DNA from: Gammaproteobacteria bacterium | GTDB taxonomy: Bacteria > Pseudomonadota > Gammaproteobacteria > Ga0077536 | Reading direction: 5' to 3' | DNA: 64,000 nucleotides | Assembly (NCBI GenBank): GCA_050186725.1 | Contig: JBFWYG010000018.1 | Span: forward strand, 1,284 to 65,283 | Shown: positions 42,089 to 58,922 of the stretch, piece by piece | Layout of the letters: every line of letters starts with the position of its first letter | Position numbering within the stretch: position 1 is the first letter of the stretch | Translations under genes and position numbers: made by a program | The notes under the pieces: model-generated | What the model was told of the DNA's origin: nothing | Database searches by the model: none | The model's input: only the letters and a program-made list of their open reading frames with translations

Positions 42089-43246
42089 GTGCGTACGCTG
42101 ACCATCCTTGCTTTCGTGCTGCTGGCGATAGCAATCCCACTTGCCTCCCTCAAGTACTTAAGTTTACCGTTCGTCTGGTGCCTCTTATCGTGGGCGGGAG
42201 CTTGTATCCTTCTGGCGGTCCGCTTCTCCGGTGCGCGGACGCGAGCAGTGTTCGTCAATTTGGCCGCGGCAGTGTTTGCGCTCATGTTTGCCGAAGCGTA
42301 CTTCGTCTACCTCCAAAAGCAGTCCTCGGATCCGGTCCAGCTAGACCAGGTTCACATCACGAGCCCGCATCCGATCCTCGGCTATGTCGCCCCGTCGAAT
42401 ACCCAGCGAACAGCCCGGAAGGTCAACAGAAAGACCGGCAAGATCATCTATGAGCACGCGGTCACGATTGGGGAAAACGGCCTTCGCGCCACTTTGCCAT
42501 TCAATAGCCTGTCGAAGGAAGCCATCCTTTTCTTCGGCGACTCGTTTGCCTACGGAGAAGGCGTGGGCGACGACGACACGCTGCCCGCTCAGGTTGCGAA
42601 GCTGACCAAAGGAAGCTATCGAGTCTACAATTTCGGTCTGCATGGGTATGGCCCGCAACACATGCTGGCCGCGATTGAAAACGATCTGGTTAACCCGATC
42701 ATTCAGCCAACAGTTCGATTCGTGTTCTATGTGACAATCAAGGATCACGTGCGCCGCCTTGCGGGGAACGCTTCGTATCTCAGGTATGGTCCGCGCTATA
42801 TTTTGTCCGACGAGGGAGAAGCGGTTAGTGCGGGATGGTTCAACCGTCCCGGGTCCTTCTGGGGCGCGCTGGGCGCGGGAATAAAGACGCAACTCATGAA
42901 GTCTGTCCTCCTGATGCGTGTGTGGTTCAGTCGGGTGGATGAGTCAGACCTGCGCCTGTACATAGCGGCGGTGAAGAAGGCATCGAAACTCATCGGCGAG
43001 GCCTATCCGAGCGCCGAGTTTCGTGTGTTGTTCTGGGATATCGGAAAGGACAAGGACGAGGTCAGTATTGTCGACCGATTGAGACAGGAAGGTATTGCGG
43101 TGTATGCAATTACTCCAGCGGAGTTTCCAGGTTTCCTGGTTGACCCTGACAAGTATCAGATTGCTGGCGACGGACATCCCACCGCGTACATGTATCATCT
43201 CGTGGCACAAGAGGTAGTGCGGCAGTTCATCGAAGCTCGAAAATAG
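42089..43246 (+). CDS. Membrane-anchored SGNH/GDSL hydrolase-family protein
   Basis: N-terminal TMs, GLR, FGDSFAYGEGV, NFG..GYGP, DGHP. Confidence 0.85.
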   Translation: MRTLTILAFVLLAIAIPLASLKYLSLPFVWCLLSWAGACILLAVRFSGARTRAVFVNLAAAVFALMFAEAYFVYLQKQSSDPVQLDQVHITSPHPILGYVAPSNTQRTARKVNRKTGKIIYEHAVTIGENGLRATLPFNSLSKEAILFFGDSFAYGEGVGDDDTLPAQVAKLTKGSYRVYNFGLHGYGPQHMLAAIENDLVNPIIQPTVRFVFYVTIKDHVRRLAGNASYLRYGPRYILSDEGEAVSAGWFNRPGSFWGALGAGIKTQLMKSVLLMRVWFSRVDESDLRLYIAAVKKASKLIGEAYPSAEFRVLFWDIGKDKDEVSIVDRLRQEGIAVYAITPAEFPGFLVDPDKYQIAGDGHPTAYMYHLVAQEVVRQFIEARK

Positions 43247-43753
43247 GCCGATAGCTGAATACGAACTCCGTCTACTTGTCGCGTTCATGAGCCGCGGCAA
43301 GGAATCATCTACCTGGTCAATACGGGCTCTGAAAATGCGTCCGCGGCGGCCAAGCACCAGTGCGGCGAGTCCGGAAACGCCCGACGGCACATTCCCCAGT
43401 CTCCGGCACCAGCACTGCTCGGACCCTGTCTCCTGGGGCTTCGCTGGTGCAGCCGAGCTGGTTGCGCTCGGCGGCCACGATGATGTCGTTCGCCGATCGC
43501 GCCACCATCCAGTACTAGCACCCCTCGGCGGCCACACGGTGGCCCTCACCGGATCGGTCCCGACGTCTTCTGCGAGGGCGACAGGCCCGCGTAGTGCGCC
43601 TTATGGCGCCGCACCTGATTGGCTTCACGACCGGGGGCGGTACGCTTGTGTTCTCCGGCCTGGGGGCGCCGCCCAGGGTGCGCCTGTTCGTCGATTGGTC
43701 TCAATGCGATAGGCGCGTCATCCCTCGGTGCAAATCGAGCTTATACTTGCGAC

Positions 43754-44167
43754 ATGTCAGATCTCATCTCCGCTGCCCCTCCCCAACTGCCCACCAACCG
43801 TAAATTTGGGGGGACTGGCGCGGCTGTGTTTGCCGCGCTTGCCGCCTATGCCTATTGGAATGATCGTGGCCTGATGGTCATTGCGGCCTCGATCGCCGCC
43901 ATTCTGTTCGCAGGTGTCACGCTCTTAGCGCCTCAAGCACTCACACGTTTGAATCGTCATTGGTATGGCTTGGGGATACTGCTTGGCAAGATCACCGGCC
44001 CTGTCGTCTTAGGGCTGATTTTCTTCGTGCTGATCACGCCGGTTGCACTCGCGCTGCGGCTGTTTGGTCGTGATGATCTGAAAATCAAGAAGCGGTCTGT
44101 TGAAAGCTATTGGATTGACCGCTCACCGCCCGGCCCTCCATCTGATTCATTCAAGAACCAATACTAG
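43754..44167 (+). CDS. SxtJ-family membrane protein
   Basis: NRKFG, P..L..LN..W...G..LG.I..P..LG.IFF..ITP, GRD.L, SYWIDR, FKNQY. Confidence 0.9.
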   Translation: MSDLISAAPPQLPTNRKFGGTGAAVFAALAAYAYWNDRGLMVIAASIAAILFAGVTLLAPQALTRLNRHWYGLGILLGKITGPVVLGLIFFVLITPVALALRLFGRDDLKIKKRSVESYWIDRSPPGPPSDSFKNQY

Positions 44168-44176
44168 GATCTGTTT

Positions 44177-44326
44177 ATGGGCTTTCTTAGAGAGCTGTGG
44201 GCATTTCTTCGCGTACGCAAGAAACTCTGGCTCGCGCCGATCATCATCGTGATGGTTGTGCTCGGCGGCCTACTGGTGCTTGCTCAAGGTTCTGTCATCG
44301 CGCCGTTTATCTACACACTGTTCTAG
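44177..44326 (+). CDS. DUF5989/SxtK-like small membrane protein (49 aa; absent from the ORF track)
   Basis: MGFLRELWAFLRVRKKLWLAPIIIVMVVLGGLLVLAQGSVIAPFIYTLF. Confidence 0.9.
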   Translation: MGFLRELWAFLRVRKKLWLAPIIIVMVVLGGLLVLAQGSVIAPFIYTLF

Positions 44327-44332
44327 AGACAA

Positions 44333-46171
44333 ATGAAGATACTCGGCATCTCGGCGTACTACCATGACGCGGCGGCGTGCCTTGTCATTGACGGTGAAAT
44401 CGTGGCCGCTGCACAAGAGGAGCGGTTCACACGACAGAAGCATGACGCGAATTTCCCTGTCAATGCCATTACGTATTGCCTTGGCCAACCGGGCATCGCC
44501 CCTGACGACATCGACCATGTCGTTTTTTATGACAAGCCGTTCTTGAAGTTTGAGAGATTGGTCGAGACCTACCTTGCGTACGCGCCGAAGGGATTCAAGA
44601 GCTTTGCCACTTCGCTACCGATTTGGCTCAAGGATAAATTGTTTCAGAAGACGGTCATCACTGATGCGCTGAAGCAGCTGTGGGGTAAGGATGGCAAGTG
44701 GGAAGAAAAGCTTCTCTTCTCCGAGCATCACTTGAGCCATGCGGCAAGCGCCTTCTTCCCAAGTCCCTTCGACCGTGCGGCGATTTTGACGATGGATGGC
44801 GTGGGCGAGTGGACCACAACATCGCTTGCCGTGGGCAAAGGGAATGAACTTGCCGTCCACAAGGAGATTCACTTTCCCCATTCCGTAGGCCTGCTGTACT
44901 CGGCCATGACTTACTACACGGGGTTCAAGGTCAACAGCGGCGAGTACAAGGTCATGGGGCTCGCTCCCTATGGTGATCCTAAGTACGCGAAGACGATCAA
45001 GGACCACCTCATCGATCTTAAAGATGACGGCTCATTCGCTCTCGACATGCAGTACTTCGATTACTGCACTGGTCTGACCATGACCAATGAGAAATTTGAT
45101 GCTCTGTTTGGTGGTCCGCCGCGAAAGCAGGAGTCCACTCTGACGCAGCGCGAGATGGACCTGGCGGCGTCGGTACAGGTCGTCGTAGAGGAGATCGTAC
45201 TGAAGCTTGCGAAAGGTGTAGCGAAGACCACGGGTGAGAAGAACCTGTGTCTCGCCGGCGGCGTGGCGCTTAACTGTGTCGCCAACGGCAAGCTCCTGAG
45301 AGAGGGGATTTTCGATCGAATGTGGATACAACCCGCCGCGGGTGATGCGGGGGGCGCCCTGGGCGCAGCGCTCGGTGCCTATCACATCATGCTCAATCGG
45401 CCGCGCAAACTGACCAGCGGCATCGATGCGATGAAAGGCGCATATCTTGGGCCGGAGTTCAGCCAGCAGGAAATCGTGGAGCGACTCACGCGCTGTGGTG
45501 CGGTCTTCGAGATCCTCACAGAAGACGAAGTGATAGAACAGACAGCGCAGGCATTGGCCAACGGCAAGGCGGCGGGGTGGATGAGTGGACGTATGGAGTT
45601 CGGCCCTCGTGCCCTGGGTGGTCGCAGCATCATCGCTGATCCACGCTCTCCCACTATGCAAAAACTGCTTAATCTCAAGGTCAAGTACAGAGAGTCATTC
45701 AGACCCTTTGCGCCAAGTGTACTAAGGGAGGATGTACGTCACTGGTTTGAGATGGATGATGACAGCCCCTACATGCTGCTCGTGGCTGATGTCGTGAAAG
45801 AAAGAAGAAGAAATATGACGGTAGAGGAACAAGCCCTGTTCGGGATCGACAAGCTGAATGTGCCACGCTCGGAGATCCCGGCAGTTACGCATGTGGACTA
45901 CTCTGCTCGAGTGCAGACTGTCCACAAGGAAACCAATCCACGCTACTACGCGTTGATCGAACGATTCAAAGCCATTACTGGCTGTCCGGTGATCGTCAAT
46001 ACATCGTTCAATGTTCGAGGCGAACCCATCGTTTGCACGCCCGAAGATGCATTCAGATGTTTCATGGGCACGGAGCTAGATGTATTGGTTGTGGGTAACG
46101 CTCTTTTATCAAAAGTCGCTCAAACGCAAGCACTGGCGGCGGACTACAAGCTGGAATATGCGCTCGACTGA
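44333..46171 (+). CDS. O-carbamoyltransferase (NodU/CmcH/SxtI family)
   Basis: ILGISAYYHD, EERF.R.KH, EHHLSHAASAF, EYKVMGLAPYG, GGVALNC, EFGPRALG.RSI, RESFRPFAP, NTSFN. Confidence 0.96.
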   Translation: MKILGISAYYHDAAACLVIDGEIVAAAQEERFTRQKHDANFPVNAITYCLGQPGIAPDDIDHVVFYDKPFLKFERLVETYLAYAPKGFKSFATSLPIWLKDKLFQKTVITDALKQLWGKDGKWEEKLLFSEHHLSHAASAFFPSPFDRAAILTMDGVGEWTTTSLAVGKGNELAVHKEIHFPHSVGLLYSAMTYYTGFKVNSGEYKVMGLAPYGDPKYAKTIKDHLIDLKDDGSFALDMQYFDYCTGLTMTNEKFDALFGGPPRKQESTLTQREMDLAASVQVVVEEIVLKLAKGVAKTTGEKNLCLAGGVALNCVANGKLLREGIFDRMWIQPAAGDAGGALGAALGAYHIMLNRPRKLTSGIDAMKGAYLGPEFSQQEIVERLTRCGAVFEILTEDEVIEQTAQALANGKAAGWMSGRMEFGPRALGGRSIIADPRSPTMQKLLNLKVKYRESFRPFAPSVLREDVRHWFEMDDDSPYMLLVADVVKERRRNMTVEEQALFGIDKLNVPRSEIPAVTHVDYSARVQTVHKETNPRYYALIERFKAITGCPVIVNTSFNVRGEPIVCTPEDAFRCFMGTELDVLVVGNALLSKVAQTQALAADYKLEYALD

Positions 46172-46650
46172 GTCGTGGTGGGATCGCCGGAGGCGGTTTT
46201 GTCTGGGTCAGGCCGCACGGCTGACTGGATGATTGGATTCTGGCGGGTTTTGAAGTTGCCTTTTGAAGTGCAACACCGTGAGGACCGGTTGAAGAAGACT
46301 TCGGCGAGCGTTCTGAACTCGAACCGCTCTCGCGGTTATTCTGCGACTTTCAGGCACTTGATCGAGCGCCAATCTCATATTGATATTGATTGGGGCCCGC
46401 GAATTAGATGTGCGGTCCCCTATCGCGCCAACGAGTCCTCCCGAGCGTGATACGGAACGATTCAGCGCAGCAAGGCCGCGCAGTCGCAGTCCGAGCTACC
46501 CGCTGCGGCCTTGTGTGTCGGTGTGAGCGACGGCCATAGCTTGGTGAGAAATGCCCTCAGGCGAGCATTGAGCTGCAATCGGCGGTGCACACCGGTCCCC
46601 GGTAGCCGGAAATCAGGGGCTTGCCGCCTGGCCGGTGCGCGAGGTGGTGA

Positions 46651-47028
46651 TTACTGGTCGCCTCGATCCGCGGCCTTGGCTGCACATTCCTCTGCCAGGA
46701 AGCTGGCCATGGACTCGATGGTTGGATAATCCCAGACCAGAGTGGGGGAAAGTTCGAGCCCCAGCAGTTCCTCAAGTTCACCAGAGAGCCGCACCGCGGT
46801 CCGCGAGTCGAACCCGTAGTCGGCGAACGGTAAGGTGCGATCTATCTCCTGCGCGTCGATCGCGAGCGTCTCTGCGACGCGTTGCACGATCCAGTCTTCG
46901 ATCTCCTTCTCACTGCGTTGCACGCGTGGCGCGCGTTCCTTGCGCCGACCCGTGAGGAGTCGCTGCGCCGTGTCCAGGAGCGCCGACAATTTCGATGCTT
47001 CTCGTTCTGCCATATGTAGCTGCTTCAA
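46651..47028 (-). CDS. Acyl carrier protein with an N-terminal extension
   Basis: PF..YGFDS (Ppant Ser), LSGELEE.LG, PTLVWDYPTI. Confidence 0.9.
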   Translation of the reverse strand: MKQLHMAEREASKLSALLDTAQRLLTGRRKERAPRVQRSEKEIEDWIVQRVAETLAIDAQEIDRTLPFADYGFDSRTAVRLSGELEELLGLELSPTLVWDYPTIESMASFLAEECAAKAADRGDQ

Positions 47029-47047
47029 GTACCCGGCGGCCGCCAGA

Positions 47048-47980
47048 TCAACGGGCCCGAGCGTTTTGGATGTCTTGTGCCGATGGAGCGCGTAGCTCCC
47101 AGGCCAAGCCGGTGTATTTCATCAAACAAATAACCCAGGCGCTCAAATCGGGTTGCCACCAATGCATCGCATGCCGGTACGATGCGGGAAACGCGTGATG
47201 GTTGTTCTGCAGCCCTTCGCCGAAAGCCAGAACCGCAACGGTGTAGTTGTTTGCGCTCTTGTCCTTGGTGTCGAACGGCCTGGTTCCGAACCGGTGACAG
47301 ATGGAGCCCACGCACCAACTGGCGTGATTGACCAAGAAGATGCGGACCAGGCCGCCCCACAGGAATGCCAGGAACGCGCCTTCCCAGGTACCAGTGAGCA
47401 GCCCGCCGGCAAGCGCCGGTAGCAAGAGCCCCAGAAATACCCATAGCAGGTAGGACTGGTGGATCCGAAAGAGCATGCGATCTCGGAGTACGTCTTTTGC
47501 GTAGTGCCCTACGTCTGCGAGGTTTCCGTCGAACATCCAGCCGATGTGTGCAAACCACAAACCACGCGCGGTGCCTTTCAGCCCGTCGCCATGCAGGTTC
47601 GGCGAGTGTGGATCGCCTTCGCGGTCGCTATGTGCGTGATGACGACGATGGGTGGACACCCAGAACAATACTGGACCCTGTGCGGCCATCGAGCCGGCAA
47701 CCGCGAGCAGCGCCTGCATCGCCCGTCCTGTCTTGAAGGAGCGGTGCGCGAAAAGTCTGTGCAGACCCACCGTCACTCCCAGCATGCACAGGAGATACAT
47801 AGCGATGAGGCTCGTTATCTCGACGGCGGATATCCCGTTACGGAACCACAACACGCCAGCGAGGATCGAACCCAGAAACGGGAACACGACGGTAGACAGC
47901 GCGATGGCTTGCTGTATTCGTAAAACCTGCGGTCGCGTCAGGGTGACGACGGCGCCAGCGGTAGGTGCATCGACGTTCAT
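47048..47980 (-). CDS. Membrane fatty-acyl desaturase/acetylenase (JamB-like), third box QNNHH
   Basis: His boxes HRLFAH, HRRHH and QNNHH; GDPHSP, HIGW. Confidence 0.9.
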   Translation of the reverse strand: MNVDAPTAGAVVTLTRPQVLRIQQAIALSTVVFPFLGSILAGVLWFRNGISAVEITSLIAMYLLCMLGVTVGLHRLFAHRSFKTGRAMQALLAVAGSMAAQGPVLFWVSTHRRHHAHSDREGDPHSPNLHGDGLKGTARGLWFAHIGWMFDGNLADVGHYAKDVLRDRMLFRIHQSYLLWVFLGLLLPALAGGLLTGTWEGAFLAFLWGGLVRIFLVNHASWCVGSICHRFGTRPFDTKDKSANNYTVAVLAFGEGLQNNHHAFPASYRHAMHWWQPDLSAWVICLMKYTGLAWELRAPSAQDIQNARAR

Positions 47981-48951
47981 GAGGATTCGCCTTGACTGTC
48001 CGAGGCATCCGACGCTGCGCGAGTCGCGATCTTCCGGTCACTTGCAACGCGTAGATCCCAGGCAAGGCCCGAAAGCTGCAGCAGGCGGACGAACCAGCCG
48101 CATGGATCGAACTGCCACCAGTAGAAGTCGTTCCGGGCGACTGCCGGGAATGCGTGATGGTTGTTGTGCCAGCATCCACCCAGGGAACTCAGCAGCAACA
48201 AGGGGTTGTTGGTGCTGTTGTTTCCGGTGTCGAACGGTCGGCTTCCGAAACGATGACAGATGGAATTCACGCTCCAGGTTGCATGTTGTACCAGGAACAC
48301 GCGTACCAGACCGCCCCACAGGAACCCGCTCAGAGCGCCTTCCCAACTTTGTGCGAGCACACCCCCGATTGCGGCCGGCAGTAGCAGTCCTAATGCGACC
48401 CACAGGGGATAGTAGCGATGCAGGCGGAAGATGAGCCTGTCGCTCAGCAGGTCGGATACCTTACCGCCAAAGTCCTGGGGTAAAGGCTTGAACATCCAGC
48501 CAATGTGAGCGTGCCAGAGCCCTTGCATGGCGGCGAGCGCGCCGGGCGACGCGGCGCGCGGAGAATGGGGATCCCCCTCCTGGTCGGTATGGCCATGGTG
48601 CTCACGGTGTACGGCGGCCCAAAACAAGACTGGCCCCTGCGCGGAAGCAGAACCGAGGATGGCGAGTAGTGCACGCACCGCAGGGTGCGCTTTGAAGGCC
48701 CGATGGGAGAAATGGCGGTGATAGCCGACCTCCACGCCGATAACGTTCGCCACGTAGAGCACCAGCAGCAATACGAGATCGACGGTAGTCACGCCGCTTC
48801 TGTAGGCGAGGTAGCCGGCGCCCGCCACGCCGAGCATGGGGACGAACACGATCAGCCGCGCCAGGTTCCTCTGCCAGCGTAAGATCTGGAGGGCGGGCTG
48901 CCTCGCCGAGGTGGCTCCGATGGCTACTGCTGCCTCTGAACGCTGCGTCAT
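47977..48951 (-). CDS. Membrane fatty-acyl desaturase/acetylenase (JamB-like)
   Basis: His boxes HRHFSH, HREHH and HNNHH; GDPHSP, WSVNSICH. Confidence 0.9.
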   Translation of the reverse strand: MTQRSEAAVAIGATSARQPALQILRWQRNLARLIVFVPMLGVAGAGYLAYRSGVTTVDLVLLLVLYVANVIGVEVGYHRHFSHRAFKAHPAVRALLAILGSASAQGPVLFWAAVHREHHGHTDQEGDPHSPRAASPGALAAMQGLWHAHIGWMFKPLPQDFGGKVSDLLSDRLIFRLHRYYPLWVALGLLLPAAIGGVLAQSWEGALSGFLWGGLVRVFLVQHATWSVNSICHRFGSRPFDTGNNSTNNPLLLLSSLGGCWHNNHHAFPAVARNDFYWWQFDPCGWFVRLLQLSGLAWDLRVASDRKIATRAASDASDSQGESS

Positions 48952-48967
48952 TGAAGTCAATCCCGAC

Positions 48968-50803
48968 TCAAATCGCTTGCAAAGCGTTGTCTAGATACTG
49001 TTGGCGGCAAACGCGCCGTCGCAGTTTACCGCTAGACGTTCTCGGTAGCGAGGCCGGTCGCACGAGTACCAGGTCAAAAATCTGCACGTCGTGCTCACGC
49101 GCAACAGCCGAGCGTACCGCACGAAGAACAGCCTGCTCGTCCTCTTCCCCTGCCAAATTCAGGCGTTGGCTCCGCTTCACTTCCGCCACGGCTATCAGGA
49201 CTTCGTGATGAGCTTGTTCTACGCAGAACACGATGCAACCACGTGCCTGGAGCATCGGGTGAGCGTTTTCGACCGTTCGCTCCAAGTCCTGGGGATAATG
49301 ATTGCGGCCGGCTATGATGATGAGTTCCTTCAGCCTTCCGGTGACGAAGAGTTCACCATCGCGCAGGAAACCCAGGTCCCCCGTCCTCAGGAACGGGGTT
49401 TCCAGCGAAGGCTCCCCCCTGTGAGGAGCCGTTGGGCACTGCACGGCGGTACTCCCCCTCGGCGCTCCCCCCGGGGTGCCAGCGGAGTTGGGCGCGTCAG
49501 CGAGACGTGCCGCAAAGGTCGCGTCGCTTTCGGCCGCGCGACCCCAGTAGCCGGATGCAACGCTTGGCCCGGAGATCCAGATCTCACCGATATGCTCGTC
49601 CGGGCACGCTCGACGGGTCTGCGGATCAACAATCAGCAGATGCTGCCCGTCACGGACCGGCCCGCATCCCACCAACTCGGGCCCTTCGGGATCAGGCGCG
49701 GCACGCCCCAACTCGAGGTCACGAGACGAGCACCGCAGGAACGAGGCCGGTCGGGATCTTTCCCTGCCGGAAACCATCAGCGTCGCCTCGGCGAGGCCGT
49801 AACACGGTAGCCAGGCTTCAGAGCTGAAGCCACATTGCGAAAAGGTTTGCTCGAACCGTTCGAGGGTCCGGGCACGAACTGGCTCGGCGCCGGTAAATGC
49901 CACCTGCCAGCTGCCGAGATCCAGCTCTGAACGCTGCTCGGCGGTTATTCGGTCCGCGCACAGATCGAAGGCGAAGTCCGGGCCGCCACTGGTCGTGGCA
50001 CGCCATTCACTCACGGCTCGGAGCCAGCGCACGGGCTGTTGCAGAACATGCAGCGGAGACATCAGCACGACCGGAAAACCAACGTACATCGGTTGGAGGA
50101 TGCCCCCGATGAGTCCCATGTCGTGATAAGGAGGAAGCCAGATCACGCCGCGGCTGTCGGGTGTGTGCTCGAAGCACTGCGCGATCACTCGCGAATTGTG
50201 CATGAGGTTGCCGTGCGTGAGCATGACCCCACGGGGCTCGCCCGTGGCGCCAGACGTATATTGCAGCATGGCAATAGAGTCAGGACATGGTCTGGAGGCC
50301 GCCGAGAGCTGATCTATTGGCGGAAGGGGCTCCGCCGTCTCCGCGGCCTCCTCGGGGGTCAGGACGGGCATTGACCAGTCGCTATCGAAGCCCGATATCG
50401 CTCCCGTACGCGGATCCGGCGCCGCGACCATGACACTCGGTTGCGCGTTCGCGGCCACGCCTCTGAGCTTTGCGATCTGACGCTCGCCGCGCGGTGGATA
50501 GGCCGGCACCGCGACGAATCCGCCATACAGTGCGCCATAGAATGCGGCTATGAGCTCAAGACCGGGCGGCAACACCAGTAGAACTCTGTCGCCAGGCTCG
50601 GCCACCGCAGCGAGCTTCGCGGCCCACTTTCGCGCGGCAAGATCGAGAGCCGCATAGGTGAACTCGACCCGCTCATCGTCGCCGTCCAGCAAGAACACGT
50701 AGGCTCTGCGCTCCGGCTGTTGCCGAGCCCTCACGCTCATGAGATGAGCGAGCGTTGGCTGCTCAAATGAAGCGTCCGCCGACATGGTCTGTGGTGGGGC
50801 CAA
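48968..50803 (-). CDS. Fatty acyl-AMP ligase (FAAL)
   Basis: LQYTSG, WLPPYHDMGLIG, CYGLAEATL, FAAL-type insertion before VGCG, RTGDLG, GRNHYPQD, TSSGK. Confidence 0.93.
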   Translation of the reverse strand: MAPPQTMSADASFEQPTLAHLMSVRARQQPERRAYVFLLDGDDERVEFTYAALDLAARKWAAKLAAVAEPGDRVLLVLPPGLELIAAFYGALYGGFVAVPAYPPRGERQIAKLRGVAANAQPSVMVAAPDPRTGAISGFDSDWSMPVLTPEEAAETAEPLPPIDQLSAASRPCPDSIAMLQYTSGATGEPRGVMLTHGNLMHNSRVIAQCFEHTPDSRGVIWLPPYHDMGLIGGILQPMYVGFPVVLMSPLHVLQQPVRWLRAVSEWRATTSGGPDFAFDLCADRITAEQRSELDLGSWQVAFTGAEPVRARTLERFEQTFSQCGFSSEAWLPCYGLAEATLMVSGRERSRPASFLRCSSRDLELGRAAPDPEGPELVGCGPVRDGQHLLIVDPQTRRACPDEHIGEIWISGPSVASGYWGRAAESDATFAARLADAPNSAGTPGGAPRGSTAVQCPTAPHRGEPSLETPFLRTGDLGFLRDGELFVTGRLKELIIIAGRNHYPQDLERTVENAHPMLQARGCIVFCVEQAHHEVLIAVAEVKRSQRLNLAGEEDEQAVLRAVRSAVAREHDVQIFDLVLVRPASLPRTSSGKLRRRVCRQQYLDNALQAI

Positions 50804-51344
50804 GCGCAGGATCCCGCTGTGAAATTTAATGTGCAGGTTCTTAGGGCATTGATATCATATTTTGGCGATGGCGCGCATAGGCAAGAAACAACGTGAACAA
50901 AAGTCAACAACCCCAGACTTTCGTGCAGGCTCGATTGAACCGACTCCCCTCGGCATCGGAGGGCGCGGCGGTCGACCCTGAAGTTGCGCCTCGCGAGCGC
51001 TGTTCGCCTCGATAGGCTACGCTCCCGCTATCAAGGGAACCGTGATGGACTCCCATTTCGGAGGAGCCTGAGGAGCGAGAGCACTCAATCACCGGACCAC
51101 TTTTCGCCTAGCAGGGGCACGGTCGCATGCAACGGTTCGCCTTGTGCTCGCACACCCTTTTGTCTGAAGCTGCGCTCGAGCTCATCGGGGAAGGAAATGG
51201 GGGGCGATCGATGCCGTGGAGTACTCTGCGGGGGGCGCTCCTAGCGCATGGCCGTGCACGCGGCCGCCGCCGCCCGCTGAGCCATCTTTGGCGCGAACCC
51301 TGACGCATGCGGAACTGAGCACGATGAATTGACGGCACAAGGAT

Positions 51345-53117
51345 ATGACGCAGACATTTGAGTCCGACCAACCCTGGCGTGCGGCGACACGCATGCAAGC
51401 CACGACACTTGTCGACATTCTCCGCGCGCGAGCCGATCAGCACCCTCAACGTTCGTTGTACACGTTCCTCAAGCGCGCCCGGGAAGTGGAACAAGAACTC
51501 ACTTTCGGGGCTCTGGATGCTCGCGCCCGGGCCATCGCTGCTCATCTGCAGGACTCTTCACAGGTCGGAGACTGCGCCGCGGTGATTTGTCCAAACGACC
51601 TCAGTTTTACTGAAGCGTTCATGGGCTGTCAGTACGCGGGAGTGGTCCCGGTGCCTACCCCCCCGTTGCAAGGCTTCCACGCCGTCGAACGCCTGCGTGC
51701 AGTGTTCAATGCAGTCAGTCCAGTGTGCATCGTCACGACGAGCACGGTCAGTGCACGGCTGATGTCGCAAAGCAGCAAGCTGCCGGTGCTCGCCGATCTG
51801 CCGCATCTGTGCATCGATAAGATAGCCGATCATGATCGAGAACAATGGCGTGCACCGGCTATTGACGACACCACCCTTGCGTTTTTGCAGTTCACCTCGG
51901 GATCCCTCTCGGCGCCCAAGGGCGTCAAGATAAGTCACGGCAACATCCTGCATAACCTGTCGCTGCTACAGCGCACATTCGAGCACGACGAACACAGCAG
52001 AATCGTCAGCTGGCTGCCCTTTTTTCACGATTGGGGCCTGATCGGCGGGTTGCTGCAACCACTGTATTCCGGCGTTCACGGTGTTCTGTTCGACCCGCTC
52101 GAGTTCATTCGCAAGCCGATGAGTTGGTTGCAAGTGATCTCGCGCTTCGGCGCTACCCTGAGCGGCGCGCCAAATTTCGCGTACGAACGATGCACGCAAA
52201 CTGTTCGCCCCGAAGATTTCGAGGATCTCAACCTCGGTGCTTGGAACGCCGCCATAGTGGGTGCCGAGCCGATTCGTGCCGAAACGCTTGATCGCTTTAC
52301 GGCGTGCTTCGCTCAATCCGGTTTCGAACCCCGTGCGTTCTATCCGTCCTACGGTCTCGCGGAATCGACTCTTATGGTGACAGGCACGCGTAAGAGCGGT
52401 ATCCCGGTCAGACTCTCGATAGATAGAGCTGCCCTCGAGAGCGGAAGGATAGAGCACGGCATAGGCACAGATGTCGCACGGTCACGCACCTTGGTCAGCT
52501 GTGGCCCGGAGGTGCTGGAGCAACGAGTCTGCATCGTCGATACCGACTTGATGCGAGCATGTGAACCGATGCGCATTGGCGAAATCTGGGTCTCTGGCCC
52601 AAGTGTCGGGCAAGGCTACTGGGGACTCGAGGCGGACAGCGCCGACTGCTTCGCCGCAACCCTCGATGGCGACAGCGGCACGCGCTGGCTGCGCACCGGC
52701 GATGAGGGATTCATTTACGACGGCGAGCTGTACGTCACGGGACGTATCAAGGACCTGATCATCGTTCACGGCCGCAACCTGTATCCCGAGGATATAGAGC
52801 GAGTCGTAAGCGATGCCCACCCCGCGCTCAACCAAGGGCGCGGCGCTGCATTCTCTATCGATCTGAACGAAAGCGAGCAACTCATCGTCGTCCATGAGCT
52901 CGAATTTGGCGAGCGTTTCAACGCCGAAAGTATCGTCGAGGAAGTCCGTCGCGCTGTGGTCGGTGTCGTCGGCGTACCGCCTGCCACAGTTGCCTTGGTA
53001 AAGGTGGGGAGTGTGCCATTGACCACCAGTGGCAAAGTCCAGCGGCGCGCTTGCAAGAATCTCTATCTCGGACAAGCGTTGCCTTGTCTGCACGAATGGC
53101 GCACTGGAGCTGTCTGA
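51345..53117 (+). CDS. Second fatty acyl-AMP ligase (FAAL), divergent from the first
   Basis: LQFTSGS, WLPFFHDWGLIG, YGLAESTL, IDRAALE.G insertion, RTGD, GRNLYPED, TTSGKVQR. Confidence 0.92.
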   Translation: MTQTFESDQPWRAATRMQATTLVDILRARADQHPQRSLYTFLKRAREVEQELTFGALDARARAIAAHLQDSSQVGDCAAVICPNDLSFTEAFMGCQYAGVVPVPTPPLQGFHAVERLRAVFNAVSPVCIVTTSTVSARLMSQSSKLPVLADLPHLCIDKIADHDREQWRAPAIDDTTLAFLQFTSGSLSAPKGVKISHGNILHNLSLLQRTFEHDEHSRIVSWLPFFHDWGLIGGLLQPLYSGVHGVLFDPLEFIRKPMSWLQVISRFGATLSGAPNFAYERCTQTVRPEDFEDLNLGAWNAAIVGAEPIRAETLDRFTACFAQSGFEPRAFYPSYGLAESTLMVTGTRKSGIPVRLSIDRAALESGRIEHGIGTDVARSRTLVSCGPEVLEQRVCIVDTDLMRACEPMRIGEIWVSGPSVGQGYWGLEADSADCFAATLDGDSGTRWLRTGDEGFIYDGELYVTGRIKDLIIVHGRNLYPEDIERVVSDAHPALNQGRGAAFSIDLNESEQLIVVHELEFGERFNAESIVEEVRRAVVGVVGVPPATVALVKVGSVPLTTSGKVQRRACKNLYLGQALPCLHEWRTGAV

Positions 53118-53359
53118 TGCCCGACGTCTACGAACTCATCCCCTTGGGCGACGCGCGCGGCAGTGAAACTGGTGGCGCGTGCTGACGGCCCGCGCCGATG
53201 TCGCTTCGTACCCGACTCCCACGCCAGACCAAACCCCGGGTCGCAGTTGGCTGGCGAATGCCTGGGAATATCGTCGTGACGGCAGACCCGCCCCGGTCAG
53301 CGTTCGAATCGCCCTTGCACCGTGCCGCGTAAAGGTGGAATTATTGCGAGCAGGGTCAC

Positions 53360-53375
53360 TGGCGCATTTATTGCG
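53360..53375 (+). promoter_or_regulatory. Sigma-54 promoter upstream of the wzz-like gene
   Basis: TGGCGCA-TTTA-TTGCG. Confidence 0.6.
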
Positions 53376-53567
53376 CGGTCGCTGGTGCCCAATGGATAAT
53401 ATTGACCTCATTTGCGAGCGAAACGAACGGCGGGAGCACGCACGCGCAAGCTTGGCGATGCCTGCAGGTAACAGCACATCTTCCGGGGTGCATACCGGGA
53501 ACTGGAGAACCCCGCTCGATGGCAATCTCGGTCTTCCAAGCACCCCAAAAAGCTTCCACGCATTCTG

Positions 53568-54473
53568 ATGAGTGAACAAGGGACCCTCTACGACTATTGG
53601 ATGGCGCTCTATCGTCGCAGGATCGCGATTCTGTTCGTCAGCCTTTCTGCGGCGGTGTTCGCCTACTTGATCAGCCTTGTGCTACCGCCTGTCTATGAGG
53701 CCAAGTCGGCATTCTACTTGCCAGTGGTGAGCGGCGCCCCGCCGTATACAGCCGATCCGGGGGCGGGACAGACGGAAAAGGCGCCGCTGATGCCCGTTAC
53801 CAATGAAAAGGAGGGCGGTGTTCATCTGGGCATTCTGAAGGGTGAAGCGATAACGACGGCAATCCTTGAGCAGTTTCCATCCAAGACACGCAGCGACCTG
53901 AAGCTGAATGTCGATTTCGTAATGAGCGAATACTTCCTGACCGAAGTCTACGTGCGAGATGTGGACCCGGAATTGGCGGCGGCGATGGCCAACGCATACC
54001 CCGTGGCTTACAAGGCATTCCATGGCCGCTCCCTGGCCAATCGCAGTGCTTTCCCGGTAAAAGCCTTGGAGAACCAATTGGCCTCAATCGAGAAGTCACT
54101 TGCGAAGAATCTCGCCGCACAACAACAACATCGCGACCGCAACGTTTCGTCGTCGGTGGTCATGGAATCGCTGCGGACAGAGTACCGTAACCTTGCGGCG
54201 CTCCTGGACTCGACACAGAAGAACCTCATAGAAGCGAAGCTGAAGCAGGAGAACCCCGCCGTAGAACTGGTGCTTGTCGAACGGGCAACTGTTCCTACGA
54301 GACCGACATTCCCGCGACCAATCCTCAACACCATAGTGTCGTTGATATTCGGTCTTGCCGCAGGGTGTTACTACGCACTATTCCTGGAGTACTTGACCAA
54401 GTTGCGTAGATATCGCCTCGAACGAACCATGGACACGGCGCCGCTCGAAGCTGCGGATGGTGGAGCGGCGTAA
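53568..54473 (+). CDS. Wzz/GumC-type polysaccharide co-polymerase (chain-length determinant)
   Basis: N-terminal TM + PPVYEA, DPELAA.MAN, coiled coil, A.VP..P.FPRP + C-terminal TM. Confidence 0.88.
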   Translation: MSEQGTLYDYWMALYRRRIAILFVSLSAAVFAYLISLVLPPVYEAKSAFYLPVVSGAPPYTADPGAGQTEKAPLMPVTNEKEGGVHLGILKGEAITTAILEQFPSKTRSDLKLNVDFVMSEYFLTEVYVRDVDPELAAAMANAYPVAYKAFHGRSLANRSAFPVKALENQLASIEKSLAKNLAAQQQHRDRNVSSSVVMESLRTEYRNLAALLDSTQKNLIEAKLKQENPAVELVLVERATVPTRPTFPRPILNTIVSLIFGLAAGCYYALFLEYLTKLRRYRLERTMDTAPLEAADGGAA

Positions 54474-54730
54474 TGGGAACCAGCGACGACCGGTCGAAAC
54501 ATGTGCGTGATCCTCGAATGCGCGAAAGCCTTGCAGACGCCTATCTGTACATTCAAAAGAAGTACGAAGATGAGGGGCGGATCCCGCGAGATTCGGGCAA
54601 CGTCCTTTCGAGTCACCAGGCCTTGTGGGAGACGCTAGGTGCGATCCACCTGGGCATGTTCGTTGCTGCTGTGAGCGTTGTCATGAGCTTCATCTTGATC
54701 AATTTCCTGCTGCATCTGCCACCTTCTTGA
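54473..54730 (+). CDS. Small membrane protein (85 aa)
   Basis: Translationally coupled to the wzz-like gene (TAATG); single C-terminal TM. Confidence 0.6.
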   Translation: MGTSDDRSKHVRDPRMRESLADAYLYIQKKYEDEGRIPRDSGNVLSSHQALWETLGAIHLGMFVAAVSVVMSFILINFLLHLPPS

Positions 54731-54747
54731 TGTGGAGTTTGGGCAGG

Positions 54748-55014
54748 ATGAAGCAACAAGCACAAACGAACCAGCCTGTAGATGCTCCGGCGCCTGAGGT
54801 CTTGAAGCGTGTTCTCGCCTATGCCGAACGTAGCGCGTCGAGCGGGCGCTTCCCGTATGAAGGGCAGTGGCTCACCATGGTAGAGATTGAAGAGCAGATT
54901 CGCGCAAAGCGGCGGACAGCACTGATGCATGCTCGCGAGCTGTCAGCGTTGTTCTTTTTCACGTACGTGCTGGCCGCGGTATTGTGGAAGTTCATCTCGC
55001 TCCTTACCTACTGA
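54748..55014 (+). CDS. Small membrane protein (88 aa)
   Basis: MKQQAQ...GRFPYEGQWLT...; single C-terminal TM. Confidence 0.6.
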   Translation: MKQQAQTNQPVDAPAPEVLKRVLAYAERSASSGRFPYEGQWLTMVEIEEQIRAKRRTALMHARELSALFFFTYVLAAVLWKFISLLTY

Positions 55015-55508
55015 CCCTACTCCACTGAATTCAACAATGGCGTCACATCGCATGTTTGAGAAAGACACGTGTCGGCACTAGCCCGTAAACCGACTGCGCG
55101 AACAAGACTCGAGCTCAAGGGTACCCACGGTTCACACGAAGACGCGCGAGCAAAGCACTTCGTTAGCGGCAATTCCGCCTCTCCCCCCAGCGTTGGCGAA
55201 GGGGTGCCGAAACGCCTCAGGTGTTCGACCGGGTAAAAGCCACCTGTCCTGTCCGAAACTGAGATCTGGTAACCGCACATCGATAAGCGCGGACCTGTCT
55301 TTAAGTGGCGGCGATTGGACGTATATCGCATCAGTAACGAGACGTAACAGGATTGACGCACTTGCGCGTCTGTCATAGTGTCCTTTCGCTCCGGCGTTGT
55401 AGCACTAGCATGCGCCCCATGCGGATACCACCGTCGGCCCATATCCCGCTTTAATGAGCCATAGCCATTTGACAACGGCCGGCCGTGGCGGTCCTGATCC
55501 ATCACATA

Positions 55509-56717
55509 ATGAGTCGACCGATGATAAAGCCGCCACCAGTTGTTCACGATCTCCAAGTGGCACACGGTTCCGTGTACGGGCAGGAGGAGCGTGACGCGGT
55601 CCTTGCTGTCCTCGACGAGAGCGCCCCAACTTGTAGCAAACGGGTCGCCGAGTTTGAGGCGCAGTTCGCGGAGTTCTGTGGCACCAGATACGCTGTCTCG
55701 GTTTCGTCCGCCACCACCGGCTTGATGCTCGCCGGCATCGCCTTGGACATTCAGGCGAACGATGAGGTCATCACCACCCCCATCAGTTGGATAGCCACCG
55801 CAAACGCCTTCCAGCTACTCGGCGCGAAGATACGATTCTGCGACGTCGATCCCCGCACGATGAATCTCGATCCGCAAGCTCTCGAGAAGCTGATCACTCC
55901 GCAGACGAAGGCGATCGTACCAGTTCATCTCTACGGTCAATGCTGTGACATGGAGGCCATCACCGGCATCGCGAACGAGGCAGGGATTCCAATTGTCGAA
56001 GATTGCGCGCATGCCCCTGGGGCCACGTTCAATCATCGCATGGCCGGCAGTTTCGGCGCTGCTGGAGTGTTCAGTTTCCACCAGCAAAAGAACCTCGTCA
56101 CCCTCGGTGAGGGCGGGATGCTCACCACCAATGAGGATCTGATCTACGCACGGGCCATGTCGTTCAGGTCGCACTGTTACCGCGTCTACGGAAGCCGGCA
56201 CAAATTCGGCGGTATTGATGAAACTGAGCAACCGATGGGAAGGCGCTATTGGTGGCAAGAATTTGATGATGTCGGCTACAACTTTCGAATGACCGACATA
56301 CAGGCCGCCGTCGGGAGCGTGCAACTAGTCAAGCTAGGTGCCCACAACGCCACACGGGCGGAATTGGGACATCGATTGATGCGTGGCATTTCCGACATCA
56401 AAACCGTAGTGGCACCGTTCGTGGACCACCGGGCCGAGCACGTTTTTCACCTTTTTCCGTTGTTGCTTCAGGAAGATCATCCTCTCGGTAAGGACGAATT
56501 CATCTGGCGGATGCTGCACGACCATGGAATCAAAGCGTGGTCCCACTACATTCCGATCAACACAACCGCCGCTTATCGGAGGCTCGGACATAGCGCACTC
56601 GAATGCCCGGTTGCCAGCAAAATGTTCGAGCGGCTGGTTACACTGCCTATCCATCCGCGGCTGACTCACGAGGCGATCGACTATATGGCCGGTGCGATCC
56701 GTAAGTTGAGCAGCTGA
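55509..56717 (+). CDS. DegT/DnrJ/EryC1/StrS PLP-dependent sugar aminotransferase
   Basis: FE..FA, SSATTGL, IVPVHLYG, VEDCAHA.G, FSFHQQKN...GEGG, GYNFRM, LPIHP. Confidence 0.93.
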   Translation: MSRPMIKPPPVVHDLQVAHGSVYGQEERDAVLAVLDESAPTCSKRVAEFEAQFAEFCGTRYAVSVSSATTGLMLAGIALDIQANDEVITTPISWIATANAFQLLGAKIRFCDVDPRTMNLDPQALEKLITPQTKAIVPVHLYGQCCDMEAITGIANEAGIPIVEDCAHAPGATFNHRMAGSFGAAGVFSFHQQKNLVTLGEGGMLTTNEDLIYARAMSFRSHCYRVYGSRHKFGGIDETEQPMGRRYWWQEFDDVGYNFRMTDIQAAVGSVQLVKLGAHNATRAELGHRLMRGISDIKTVVAPFVDHRAEHVFHLFPLLLQEDHPLGKDEFIWRMLHDHGIKAWSHYIPINTTAAYRRLGHSALECPVASKMFERLVTLPIHPRLTHEAIDYMAGAIRKLSS

Positions 56718-56873
56718 ATTCCTCAAGAACTGACTGCGGGCATGGCGCGATAGAGGCGCGCTCGACCTAGGCTGTCAGCGAAAGAGCGCGACAGCCTTGG
56801 CACGCCGATTCGCCACGGTAGAATCCCCAACCCGGCCATCTTGCAGCCAGAGCTGCCCGGCGCTGGAGCGTAG

Positions 56874-57815: not shown

Positions 57816-57843
57816 GGTTCGTGGCGCACTTCATCATGGCTCC

Positions 57844-58914: not shown

Positions 58915-58922
58915 CTACGTGT

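Follow-up and report, generated by a model that had tools for sequence, protein, structure and literature searches.

The window (the whole 64,000-nucleotide stretch of DNA analysed here, from the 94.7%-complete genome of an uncultured gammaproteobacterium, G000) contains a minus-strand unit at 46651-50803 that reads fatty acyl-AMP ligase (FAAL), desaturase, desaturase, ACP, next to a divergent second FAAL. Pfam searches confirm this arrangement, which a preliminary description had proposed, and all of the flanking genes named there are present, with the SGNH-like and Wzz-like matches falling below cut-off. The genes are as follows:

42080-43246, plus strand: SGNH/AlgX-like protein of 388 aa that opens the low-GC island (Pfam Lipase_GDSL_2, E 0.0045, under cut-off)
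43751-44167, plus strand: SxtJ-family membrane protein (Pfam SxtJ 6.1e-8)
44177-44326, plus strand: DUF5989 small membrane protein of 49 aa (Pfam DUF5989 9.7e-27, full length; dN/dS 0.03)
44333-46171, plus strand: NodU/CmcH-type carbamoyltransferase (Carbam_trans_N 1e-108; Carbam_trans_C 4.1e-74; NodU 3e-46, under cut-off)
46651-47028, minus strand: ACP (Pfam PP-binding 2.7e-17; DS-motif serine visible; probable start ATG at 47013)
47048-47980, minus strand: desaturase B (DesB), F-type, in the PgnF/CayC position (FA_desaturase 1.1e-19; dN/dS 0.10)
47977-48960, minus strand: desaturase A (DesA), E-type, in the PgnE/CayB position (FA_desaturase 1.2e-19)
48968-50803, minus strand: FAAL1 (AMP-binding 1.4e-64, with a DIP2-like C-terminal domain)
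51345-53117, plus strand: FAAL2, the divergent second FAAL (AMP-binding 1e-58)
53568-54473, plus strand: Wzz/GNVR-like co-polymerase-type protein (Wzz 24.4 bits, cut-off 25.5; GNVR 18.6 bits; sub-threshold)
55485-56717, plus strand: DegT-family sugar aminotransferase (DegT_DnrJ_EryC1 1e-105; PseC-like 305 bits, under the 423 cut-off)
56874-57815, minus strand: GT2 glycosyltransferase a (Glycos_transf_2 5e-33)
57844-58914, minus strand: SDR sugar epimerase/dehydratase (Epimerase 4.7e-31; no NCBIfam equivalog cut-off reached)
58923-59693, minus strand: glucose-1-phosphate cytidylyltransferase RfbF (TIGR02623 369 bits, NCBIfam equivalog cut-off 300)
60472-61485, plus strand: GT2 glycosyltransferase b (Glycos_transf_2 3.9e-38)
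61674-63608, minus strand: GH39-like protein (Glyco_hydro_39 1.8e-12; PDB GH39 beta-xylosidases 1e-7)
63958 to about 64644, plus strand, crossing the window end at 64000: Sfp/EntD-type 4'-phosphopantetheinyl transferase (PPTase), assigned from the domains of its ortholog in the congener G004
From about 64780, beyond the window and ended by the contig end: PF00975 type II thioesterase (TE), about 14 kb from the cassette

Cassette junctions are tight: FAAL1 and DesA are 7 nt apart, DesA and DesB overlap by 4 nt, and about 20 nt separate DesB from the ACP gene. Three His boxes are visible in both desaturases, and DesA matches mouse SCD1 (4YMK) at 3.6e-33. The top solved relatives of FAAL1 in a PDB comparison are FAALs (3KXW, FadD32, FadD23 and 3PBK); it shares 38-48% identity with cassette FAALs of other loci and 39% with FAAL2, which is intact in G004 at 90% amino acid identity. 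The ORF at 46175-46450 lacks both a family match and conservation in the sister genome. For the SGNH/AlgX-like protein, an NCBIfam match to an LA_2486-type SGNH esterase (1.7e-6) is also under cut-off, Atlas feature and structure neighbours in SGNH/GDSL and ALGX clusters provide a lead only, and no PDB sequence relative was found; its dN/dS against G004 is 0.20. The Wzz-like protein has weak EpsF and chain-length-determinant matches and a dN/dS of 0.08. By eye, the hydrophobic N-terminus of the GH39-like protein looks like a secretion signal.

Positions 42-64 kb of the window and about 1 kb beyond are best read as a single horizontally acquired, low-GC accessory biosynthetic island. GC content is 55-63% from 42 kb onward compared to about 68% upstream. 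The complete island occurs in two of the 81 genomes searched in the order and was not found in the remaining 79. G000 and G004 are syntenic across it up to the thioesterase, near which both assemblies break. Each of the 17 annotated island genes is intact in G000 and in G004; dN/dS is 0.03-0.23 (0.08-0.23 for the four cassette genes), and purifying selection acts on every one. Synonymous divergence between the two genomes is 0.19-0.25 for FAAL1, DesA and DesB, about half that of flanking genes (0.41-0.66), so that the cassette could have had a different history from the sugar genes. Because the island is known from two related genomes only, its co-inheritance represents one event. RNA-seq contigs from one library, 91-98% alike, fall on DesB, DesA, FAAL1 and the Wzz-like, DegT and GT2a genes, which is a weak hint of expression, since an RNA library is not proof of transcription.

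The preliminary description reported no PKS/NRPS, thioesterase or third desaturase. This is literally true of the window, and no type I PKS, condensation domain or third desaturase was found genome-wide, but a TE lies just beyond the window end. Its first 52 aa are present at the G000 contig end, and the G004 ortholog matches the Thioesterase family at 1.4e-36. The PPTase gene (G000:C18:65241-65927) encodes a protein 83% identical to that of G004, in which 4PPT_N (6.2e-18) and ACPS (5.4e-12) domains are recognized. Within the genus, the TE occurs only in the two cassette-bearing genomes (2/11); homologs with 36% identity occur in two PKS-free FAAL/desaturase/ACP loci (L127 and L143). Among solved structures, RifR and the thioesterase entries 3QMV/3QMW (match 1e-36) are among the nearest relatives of the TE; we take 3QMV/3QMW to be RedJ, an acyl-ACP-releasing thioesterase. 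RedJ-type enzymes free acyl chains from stand-alone ACPs. With the PPTase at 63958 and the TE just past the window, thiotemplate genes bracket the sugar genes; since both belong to the island, the chain could as readily be released as a free acid as be moved to a sugar. The earlier proposal of transfer instead of release is thereby weakened, and no acyltransferase for moving a chain from ACP to sugar was identified. Neither a type I PKS KS nor an NRPS condensation domain was found in the genome, and only three other carrier domains were found, so the usual PKS/NRPS acceptors appear to be absent.

Desaturase phylogeny links the cassette to bacterial polyyne clusters, as had been suggested. In a careful ML tree (76 rows, without authentic JamB, TtuB, Cay or Pgn sequences and with reference loci assigned by architecture), DesA belongs to a clade of 9 rows that includes first desaturases from polyyne-type clusters (support 96/90), and DesB to one of 17 rows that includes the second (96/92). 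The cyanobacterial Jam-like clade (99/99) contains neither protein, and neither groups with stand-alone delta-9-like desaturases; the sister group of the cassette-associated clades that hold them is the Jam-like clade rather than the stand-alone enzymes. Loci from Pseudomonas danubii, Burkholderia sp. and Streptomyces polyasparticus have the canonical order FAAL-Des-Des-ACP-Des(other subfamily)-hydrolase, and the P. danubii locus carries a desaturase-hydrolase didomain of the pgnH kind (pgnH is so described in the excerpted text of PMC8406139). Judged by sequence, the lipid part of the island shares ancestry with the first four polyyne core genes (pgnDEFG/cayA-D). Several independent lineages with only E- and F-type desaturases surround the polyyne clade, which suggests that the E/F pair is an older, self-sufficient form.

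Gene neighborhoods in other organisms do not repeat the linkage to glycan genes. Across 160 related loci, not one has a glycan gene of the window's set, and the linkage is seen only in the two congeners that share the island. A type I PKS KS gene adjoins the cassette in 26 of 41 two-desaturase loci, with a downstream flank of <3 kb in 13 of the other 15, which makes a PKS, rather than a glycan, the ancestral partner. Next to the cassette, the closest DesB relatives (L108, L109 and L111, one lineage) encode a GT1 glycosyltransferase together with an exporter of the MacB/HlyD type. In L127 and L143, cassette desaturases occur among CMAS, amine oxidase and DUF1365 genes; given such lipid-tailoring neighbors, FAAL-Des-ACP architecture alone is not proof of an alkyne.

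We tentatively interpret the island as an accessory cluster whose product is an unsaturated, perhaps acetylenic, acyl chain, either set free or attached to a sugar, a reading that falls a little short of even odds. That it encodes a thiotemplated desaturation module is very probable. The dedicated ACP would be primed by the island PPTase; FAAL1 would adenylate a fatty acid and load it onto the ACP; the bound chain would be oxidised by DesA and DesB as SCD1-type membrane di-iron desaturases; and it would then be freed by the TE or handed on by a further putative enzyme. Gene content, homology, clade membership, co-inheritance and purifying selection are direct observations; the substrate, the formation of a triple bond, the role of FAAL2, the joining of lipid to sugar and the product are inferred. 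Formation of at least one triple bond has somewhat less than an even chance. The delta-12-like third desaturase and rubredoxin are missing, so a product less unsaturated than a tetrayne is expected; it could carry a terminal alkyne, an enyne or no more than a diene. Attachment of the chain to a sugar is plausible, if doubtful. Because thiotemplate genes bracket a co-inherited CDP-glucose/aminotransferase/two-GT2/carbamoyltransferase set, the most likely end product on this gene content would be a glycosylated lipid that may also be carbamoylated, and not a polymerised surface polysaccharide. This rare island unites polyyne-type fatty-acid genes with sugar-building genes and may yield an unusual unsaturated glycolipid.

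Two independent neighbors could also account for the region, although we think this less likely than not. The cassette, PPTase and TE would produce a tailored fatty acid in free form, as a signal, antimicrobial or membrane component, and the sugar, carbamoyl and Wzz-like genes would be an unrelated variable polysaccharide locus in a shared hypervariable region. Polysaccharide loci are textbook examples of variable regions with low GC. The releasing-type TE, its homologs in PKS-free loci elsewhere, the 0/160 linkage count and the low cassette dS all fit such a juxtaposition, as does genome G009, in which the carbamoyltransferase is likewise adjoined by SxtJ but in another glycan locus without the cassette. 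The layout argues otherwise: thiotemplate genes flank the sugar genes on both sides instead of forming one block, the sugar set has no polymerase, flippase, priming or export genes, and the Wzz-like and DegT genes lie downstream of FAAL2 in the same orientation. A dienoic or polyenoic chain with double bonds only, destined for a lipid or glycolipid, is about as likely as that reading. The His boxes are of the ordinary SCD1 type, related cassettes adjoin CMAS-type genes, and E and F alone yielded no polyyne in characterised systems (PMC9828172); set against this, DesA and DesB lie within clades that hold polyyne-cluster desaturases and are sister to the Jam-like clade, and JamB and TtuB are single enzymes of this kind that form terminal alkynes on ACP (excerpts of PMC8341276).

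The preliminary description went further, to an ACP-bound alkynyl or enynyl chain moved onto a cell-surface glycan, here taken as EPS or O-antigen. Such an alkyne-decorated polysaccharide is possible but unlikely, and the earlier interpretation is partly supported overall: polyyne-cassette homology stands, and the surface-glycan locus and its linkage in relatives are unsupported or weakened. Wzz-like, GH39-like, GT2, RfbF, DegT and carbamoyltransferase genes do surround E/F-type desaturases, and the Atlas neighbors of the island-opening SGNH/AlgX-like protein include polysaccharide O-acyltransferase-type clusters (a lead only). However, no Wzx, Wzy, priming transferase, OPX or ABC exporter gene was found among the island ORFs scanned, the Wzz match is under the Pfam cut-off, a TE is at hand for release, and the linkage is confined to two congeners. 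AlgX-type enzymes, moreover, are known for transferring acetyl groups, not long acyl chains. Decay of a canonical polyyne cluster into a non-functional remnant would explain the three of seven core genes that are missing, but is already disfavoured and very improbable given four intact cassette genes under constraint in two species, the retained PPTase and TE, and the apparent self-sufficiency of E/F-only lineages.

Several known systems resemble the island in part. Its TE matches the RifR and 3QMV/3QMW type II thioesterases at 1e-36, and its role may be editing or releasing. Nod-factor acylation is an analogy: a special unsaturated acyl chain is assembled on its own ACP and then attached to an oligosaccharide that is carbamoylated, using the NodF ACP, NodE KS, NodA N-acyltransferase and NodU carbamoyltransferase. 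The island carbamoyltransferase shares the sub-threshold NodU match, but no NodA-, NodC- or NodE-type proteins were identified, and the island would desaturate with membrane desaturases rather than a KS. Bacterial polyyne cores (pgnD-I of Pseudomonas protegens, cayA-F with rubredoxin/ferritin of Trinickia caryophylli, cepacin and collimonin) share the order FAAL, desaturase, desaturase, ACP, a dedicated ACP and thiotemplated logic (PMC9828172). Unlike them, the island has a PF00975 TE about 14 kb away, a second FAAL and adjoining sugar genes, and no delta-12-like third desaturase, CayF-type alpha/beta hydrolase or rubredoxin was found in it or in the rest of the genome. With pgnDEFG by itself, polyynes went undetected (PMC9828172); in PMC9828172 and the excerpted text of PMC8406139, the same held for pgnDEFG or cayABCD(E) lacking the third desaturase and thioesterase, and single desaturase mutants did not accumulate intermediates. 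The literature treats a gene triad as essential for polyynes. JamABC/TtuABC terminal-alkyne cassettes likewise combine an acyl-ACP ligase, membrane desaturase/acetylenase and ACP acting on an ACP-bound fatty acid (excerpts of PMC8341276), but have one desaturase where the island has two from distinct clades, both separate from the Jam-like clade (99/99), and the island's genome has no downstream PKS or NRPS. The uncharacterised environmental two-desaturase cassettes (L112-L147) likewise lack a third desaturase and pair a FAAL and an ACP with desaturases of E- or E'-type and F-type. Gene order in L136 and L147 is identical to that of the island, and the ACPs of these two loci are 52-58% identical to its own, compared to 34-38% for polyyne-cluster ACPs. 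Directly downstream, these cassettes have a single-module type I PKS gene, KS(-AT-DH)-ACP, where the island has no PKS and sugar genes instead.

The four-gene cassette comprising one fatty acyl-AMP ligase (FAAL1), two desaturases (DesA and DesB) and an acyl carrier protein (ACP) is very probably a genuine and conserved desaturation module, thiotemplated and of polyyne E/F type. It lies in a low-GC island: window GC is ~66-72% up to ~42 kb and 55-63% from there to the window end. Island genes were identified with Pfam and NCBIfam.

Annotated genes of the island in window coordinates
42080-43246, plus strand: SGNH-like protein (weak match)
43751-44167, plus strand: SxtJ (Pfam)
44177-44326, plus strand: DUF5989 protein (9.7e-27)
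44333-46171, plus strand: carbamoyltransferase (Pfam/NCBIfam)
47028-46651, minus strand: ACP (DS serine motif)
47980-47048, minus strand: DesB (three histidine boxes)
48960-47977, minus strand: DesA (three histidine boxes; SCD1 match)
50803-48968, minus strand: FAAL1 (best solved relatives are FAALs)
51345-53117, plus strand: FAAL2 (divergent from FAAL1 and 39% identical to it)
53568-54473, plus strand: Wzz/GNVR-like protein (Wzz 24.4 bits against a cut-off of 25.5; GNVR 18.6 against 27.7)
55485-56717, plus strand: DegT aminotransferase (Pfam)
after DegT, minus strand: GT2 glycosyltransferase, SDR and glucose-1-phosphate cytidylyltransferase (RfbF, 369 bits against an equivalog cut-off of 300)
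distal to RfbF, ending at 63608: second GT2, then a GH39-like protein whose N-terminus is hydrophobic

The genes named in the preliminary description (the ligase-desaturase-desaturase-ACP series, the divergent second ligase and the sugar-gene flanks) are real, as domains, motifs and solved relatives agree; the observation is confirmed by the ACP motif, the desaturase histidine boxes, the SCD1 match and the nearest solved relatives of FAAL1. The cassette genes converge on the plus-strand set from the SGNH-like protein to the carbamoyltransferase and are tightly packed, with a 7-nt gap between FAAL1 and DesA, a 4-nt overlap between DesA and DesB and a gap of ~20 nt before the ACP. Ligase and dedicated ACP share one operon, as the polyyne core requires. 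A promoter and terminator scan of 46000-53700 gave no promoter-like sites and six terminator-like sites against 5.7 expected, which leaves no usable signal. Three ORFs (53179-53568, 54473-54730 and 54625-55014) have no family match, the first is interrupted in the congener G004, and their status as genes is doubtful. ORF 46175-46450 (91 aa), which has neither a family match nor a G004 counterpart and lies where the nucleotide alignment to G004 breaks, is probably not a gene.

Joining the window tail to the rest of the contig revealed two further genes. The first starts at 63958 and has a G004 ortholog of the Sfp/EntD type of phosphopantetheinyl transferase (PPTase; 4PPT_N 6.2e-18, ACPS 5.4e-12). 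It is followed by a PF00975 thioesterase (1.4e-36 for the G004 ortholog), of which only the first 52 residues are present in the window's genome (G000) because the contig ends there. Nearest solved relatives of the thioesterase are type II enzymes, such as RifR and the 3QMV/3QMW thioesterase. Within the genus it occurs in two of 11 genomes, exactly the two that carry the cassette, and the PPTase matches it in distribution except for one 36% relative in the congener G009. Thiotemplate genes therefore flank the sugar genes on both sides. Both assemblies stop within 1-3 kb of the thioesterase (at the end of G000 contig C18, window position ~64935, and at the start of G004 contig C324). A metallophosphoesterase gene lies beyond the thioesterase in G004.

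DesA matches mouse SCD1 (4YMK) at 3.6e-33, and the histidines of the three boxes in DesA and DesB are invariant in the desaturase alignment; both are predicted SCD1-type integral-membrane di-iron desaturases. A search of 5.8 billion proteins returned thousands of relatives labelled delta-9 or acyl-CoA desaturase. The best are 91, 71 and 66% identical to DesA and the remainder at most 58%; closer cassette relatives, with or without sugar genes, may exist, as the 71% and 66% relatives (P0004 and P0005) are known as proteins alone. Related loci comprised the best 80 of at least 600 genomic stretches and 80 metagenomic loci, which were compared with the island proteins. Three genomic loci, from Pseudomonas danubii (L009), Burkholderia (L023) and Streptomyces polyasparticus (L016), have the canonical polyyne order of FAAL, desaturase, desaturase, ACP, a desaturase from a different subfamily and an alpha/beta hydrolase. 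The last two genes are fused in L009, which matches published pgnH, described in PMC8406139 as a fused desaturase-hydrolase didomain. A thiolase follows the hydrolase in L023, and a Phenylobacterium locus (L019) has FAAL and two desaturases before its contig ends.

In a careful, unrooted maximum likelihood tree of 76 desaturase rows (supports are ultrafast bootstrap/SH-aLRT), DesA groups with the first desaturases of L009, L016, L019 and L023 in a nine-row clade (96/90), and DesB groups with the second desaturases of these four loci in a clade of 17 rows (96/92). Cyanobacterial Jam-like loci form a separate clade (99/99), stand-alone actinobacterial and planctomycete desaturases fall outside the cassette clades, and a quick 90-row tree gives the same placement. 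The reference loci are polyyne-type by architecture, in a tree without authentic JamB, TtuB, Cay or Pgn sequences. Grouping with ordinary delta-9 enzymes, which the preliminary description named as a point against its reading, was not observed: the two enzymes fall in polyyne-type clades, with stand-alone enzymes outside. With reference loci assigned by architecture, DesA and DesB would be orthologous to PgnE/CayB and PgnF/CayC, respectively.

The island is rare, intact and under purifying selection. The cassette occurs in one of ten other genomes of the genus (G004) and was not found in the other 79 of 81 genomes searched in the order. An even class-wide sample had a relative of any kind at E<=1e-60 in five of 400 genomes, none closer than 43% and all with uninformative genomic context. 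Synteny between G004 and the window extends from 16 to 63.8 kb, with 80-92% nucleotide identity and every island gene in the same order. Among the other congeners examined, three (G003, G005 and G008) retain the bordering DUF1800/DUF1501 pair and lack the island. Each of the 17 annotated island genes is intact in G000 and in G004, with dN/dS of 0.03-0.23. dS between the two genomes is 0.19-0.25 for FAAL1, DesA and DesB and 0.41-0.66 for the flanking island genes (42080-46171 and 51345-63608), a difference that subsequent exchange of the cassette or tighter codon constraint could account for.

Other features were observed in the surrounding region. A ‘sugar-transfer associated ATP-grasp’ protein (34433-35884; 5.5e-27) sits in a local GC dip (0.60) ~6 kb upstream of the low-GC island and is conserved in G004. 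An RTX calcium-binding repeat protein (36067-37488; 3.2e-28) lies between it and the DUF1501/DUF1800 pair. Within 21040-24793, two GGDEF/EAL genes (21.5-24.7 kb) have no G004 counterpart, and G004 has ~11 kb of extra DNA between positions that match window 26349 and 26461. Contigs from one RNA-seq library, 91-98% alike, map to DesB and FAAL1, to the junctions DesB/DesA and DesA/FAAL1, and to the Wzz-like gene, DegT and a GT2. Their source is a relative and they do not prove transcription, so they give a weak hint of island expression. DNA contigs from three other studies, 85-98% alike, map to both cassette and sugar genes. Stretches to which no such contig maps are uninformative.

Related cassettes mostly lead elsewhere. 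Among the best 80 genomic (of at least 600) and 80 metagenomic loci, 41 have two cassette-type desaturases and no third, and in 26 of these a large gene of one BLAST cluster lies directly downstream. Three cluster members scanned with Pfam are type I polyketide synthase (PKS) modules (KS-AT-DH-ACP, KS...ACP and KS), and 13 of the remaining 15 loci have less than 3 kb of downstream flank. Two-desaturase cassettes therefore usually hand over to a PKS, in keeping with the Jam paradigm. At least 20 metagenome contigs (L114-L133, L138, L139, L142 and L149-L152) have a divergent FAAL, then desaturase-ACP-desaturase, then KS...ACP; this layout is a putative starter module with two desaturases, and no third, for a type I PKS of a single module, and no description of it was found in the papers examined. 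The closest DesB relatives among the matches listed (L108, L109 and L111) are effectively one lineage, in which FAAL and E-type desaturase form one ORF and in which an SDR, a PEMT-like methyltransferase, a GT1 glycosyltransferase and a MacB/HlyD-type exporter precede the ACP and KS. Such fusion ORFs (888-1022 aa) occur in metagenome contigs L108 (79-2745), L109, L110 (1809-4877) and L111 (3216-5936), and a natural fusion argues that ligase and E-type desaturase act together. Neighbours of L136, L147, L115 and L121 have no recurring sugar theme.

Two further loci, L127 (2517-11427) and L143 (9938-17829), combine FAAL-desaturase-ACP with CMAS, amine oxidase, DUF1365 and a PF00975 thioesterase, with TauD added in L127 and RPE65 in L143, and have no PKS. 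Their cassette type is more basal and their thioesterase is 36% identical to that of the island. They look like thiotemplated fatty-acid tailoring lines, which means that thioesterase-terminated, PKS-free lines exist and that an alkyne is not proven by FAAL-desaturase-ACP architecture alone. Several E/F-only lineages (the window, L108-L113, L136, L147/L123 and L112-L126) surround the polyyne clade in the tree. This unrooted pattern suggests that the E/F pair is the older unit, to which the triad would have been added later, rather than that the island is a decayed polyyne cluster.

A saxitoxin connection can be rejected: SxtJ, DUF5989 and carbamoyltransferase are a widespread trio, also found in a plain glycan locus of G009. 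The literature found on these three genes consists entirely of saxitoxin papers. In that G009 locus, carbamoyltransferase and SxtJ occur in a different setting that lacks the cassette. Synteny with glycan genes, a check proposed in the preliminary description, was not seen outside the genus: none of the 160 related loci (best 80 of at least 600 genomic and 80 metagenomic) matches any non-cassette island protein at E<1e-6, and the PPTase and phosphoesterase likewise have no match there. Linkage represents one evolutionary event, shared by two congeners, and the thioesterase can simply release an acid; both points count against a lipid-sugar link, as do the result for the 160 loci and the missing genes named below. 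In its favour, lipid genes bracket the sugar genes, the two sets share low GC and distribution, the Wzz-like gene and DegT follow FAAL2 on the same strand, and the usual PKS partner is absent. Nucleotide-sugar synthesis and glycosyltransferase genes are present (RfbF above its equivalog cut-off, DegT, SDR and two GT2s). No flippase, polymerase, priming transferase or outer-membrane exporter was found among the island ORFs and the ten upstream ORFs scanned; such genes could sit past the contig end or in another place. No candidate acyltransferase emerged, and the sole lead, the SGNH/AlgX-like protein, could equally serve the carbamoyl or glycan side. For a gene set of two GT2s, CDP-glucose synthesis, an aminotransferase and a carbamoyltransferase, the more economical product would be a small glycolipid and not a polymer. 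Among the papers listed for JamB, alkynes and glycolipids, none appears to deal with such a locus; the supplements of PMC8406139 and PMC9828172 (Figs S1-S12, Table S3), with their desaturase and ACP trees and accession tables, may already contain E/F-only cassettes. The term ‘polysaccharide’ occurs 0 times in the available text of the FAAL review PMC11837247.

Bacterial alkyne and polyyne cassettes are sought for bio-orthogonal tags and antifungals. Formation of a triple bond by this cassette is plausible, with the balance tipped slightly against it, and an acyl chain that ends on a sugar is a more tentative proposition. An alkyne-decorated surface polysaccharide is improbable. A broader scheme is nearly as unlikely: the E/F pair would be a self-sufficient older polyyne form that installs a terminal alkyne or enyne, rewired here from a PKS starter to a sugar pathway to give a carbamoylated glycolipid or acylated exopolysaccharide with a natural click-reactive acyl tail, and would point to an extensive, so far unrecognised class of acetylenic starter modules with two desaturases in soil bacteria. 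Should the pair suffice for a triple bond, the minimum needed for acetylenic chains longer than JamB/TtuB substrates would be redefined, evolution of the triad would be explained and a natural alkyne-bearing glycoconjugate would become possible. Should it produce only alkenes, it would still reveal how the two conserved polyyne desaturases act when their partner is missing. E/F two-desaturase cassettes as a broader group may be a more general result than the island itself.

The polyyne core, as set out in PMC9828172 and PMC8406139, has seven genes, which encode a FAAL, an ACP, a pair of JamB-like desaturases, one delta-12-like desaturase, a thioesterase and a rubredoxin. According to the same papers, all three desaturases and the thioesterase are essential for polyyne production, and pgnDEFG or cayABCD(E) alone gives no detectable polyyne. 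G000 is 94.7% complete. The absence of a third desaturase, first noted for the window, extends to the genome: no match occurs in the island, none occurs in G000 with the L009 didomain protein as query, and the other five PF00487 genes have at best 28% identity over 107 aa to the third desaturase. Rubredoxin (PF00301) has no matches in G000, although it was detected in control genomes. No CayF-type hydrolase or PgnH C-terminal domain lies near the cassette, and only weak hydrolase matches occur on other G000 contigs. Without these three components, the island is not a member of the seven-gene polyyne family. Instead of the CayF/PgnH alpha/beta hydrolase, it ends in the type II thioesterase of another family (PF00975). 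The possibility, raised initially, that a cognate PKS or thioesterase elsewhere uses this ACP divides: G000 has no type I PKS ketosynthase (the best PF00109 match is a 449-aa ORF at 148 bits) and no NRPS condensation domain, whereas a thioesterase is found at the island's own end. The other carrier domains of G000 are those of a protein that is probably AcpP, of a tridomain protein resembling Aas and of a small ACP from an asparagine synthase/hydrolase locus; no link between these and the island was seen. Two carrier domains were examined. One, on contig C22 (3508-9607; L194), is a 94-aa ACP that has an alpha/beta hydrolase, a DAHP-synthase-like protein and an asparagine synthase as neighbours; the other, on contig C3 (78368-81235; L193, 6369-9236), belongs to a 955-aa protein that combines PP-binding, AMP-binding and PlsC-acyltransferase domains.

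Compared with JamABC/TtuABC, ligase and ACP are present, but there are two desaturases, which fall in clades apart from the cyanobacterial Jam-like clade in a tree without authentic JamB or TtuB, and G000 has no PKS or NRPS to take over an alkynyl-ACP. The published framework consists of the three-gene alkyne cassette and the seven-gene polyyne cassette, and no other pathway that evolved from the alkyne cassette had been found according to PMC8406139. The island and many environmental loci display a four-gene form with the polyyne-type desaturase pair and no triad, which feeds single-module PKSs elsewhere and here is accompanied by sugar genes as well as by a PPTase and a type II thioesterase.
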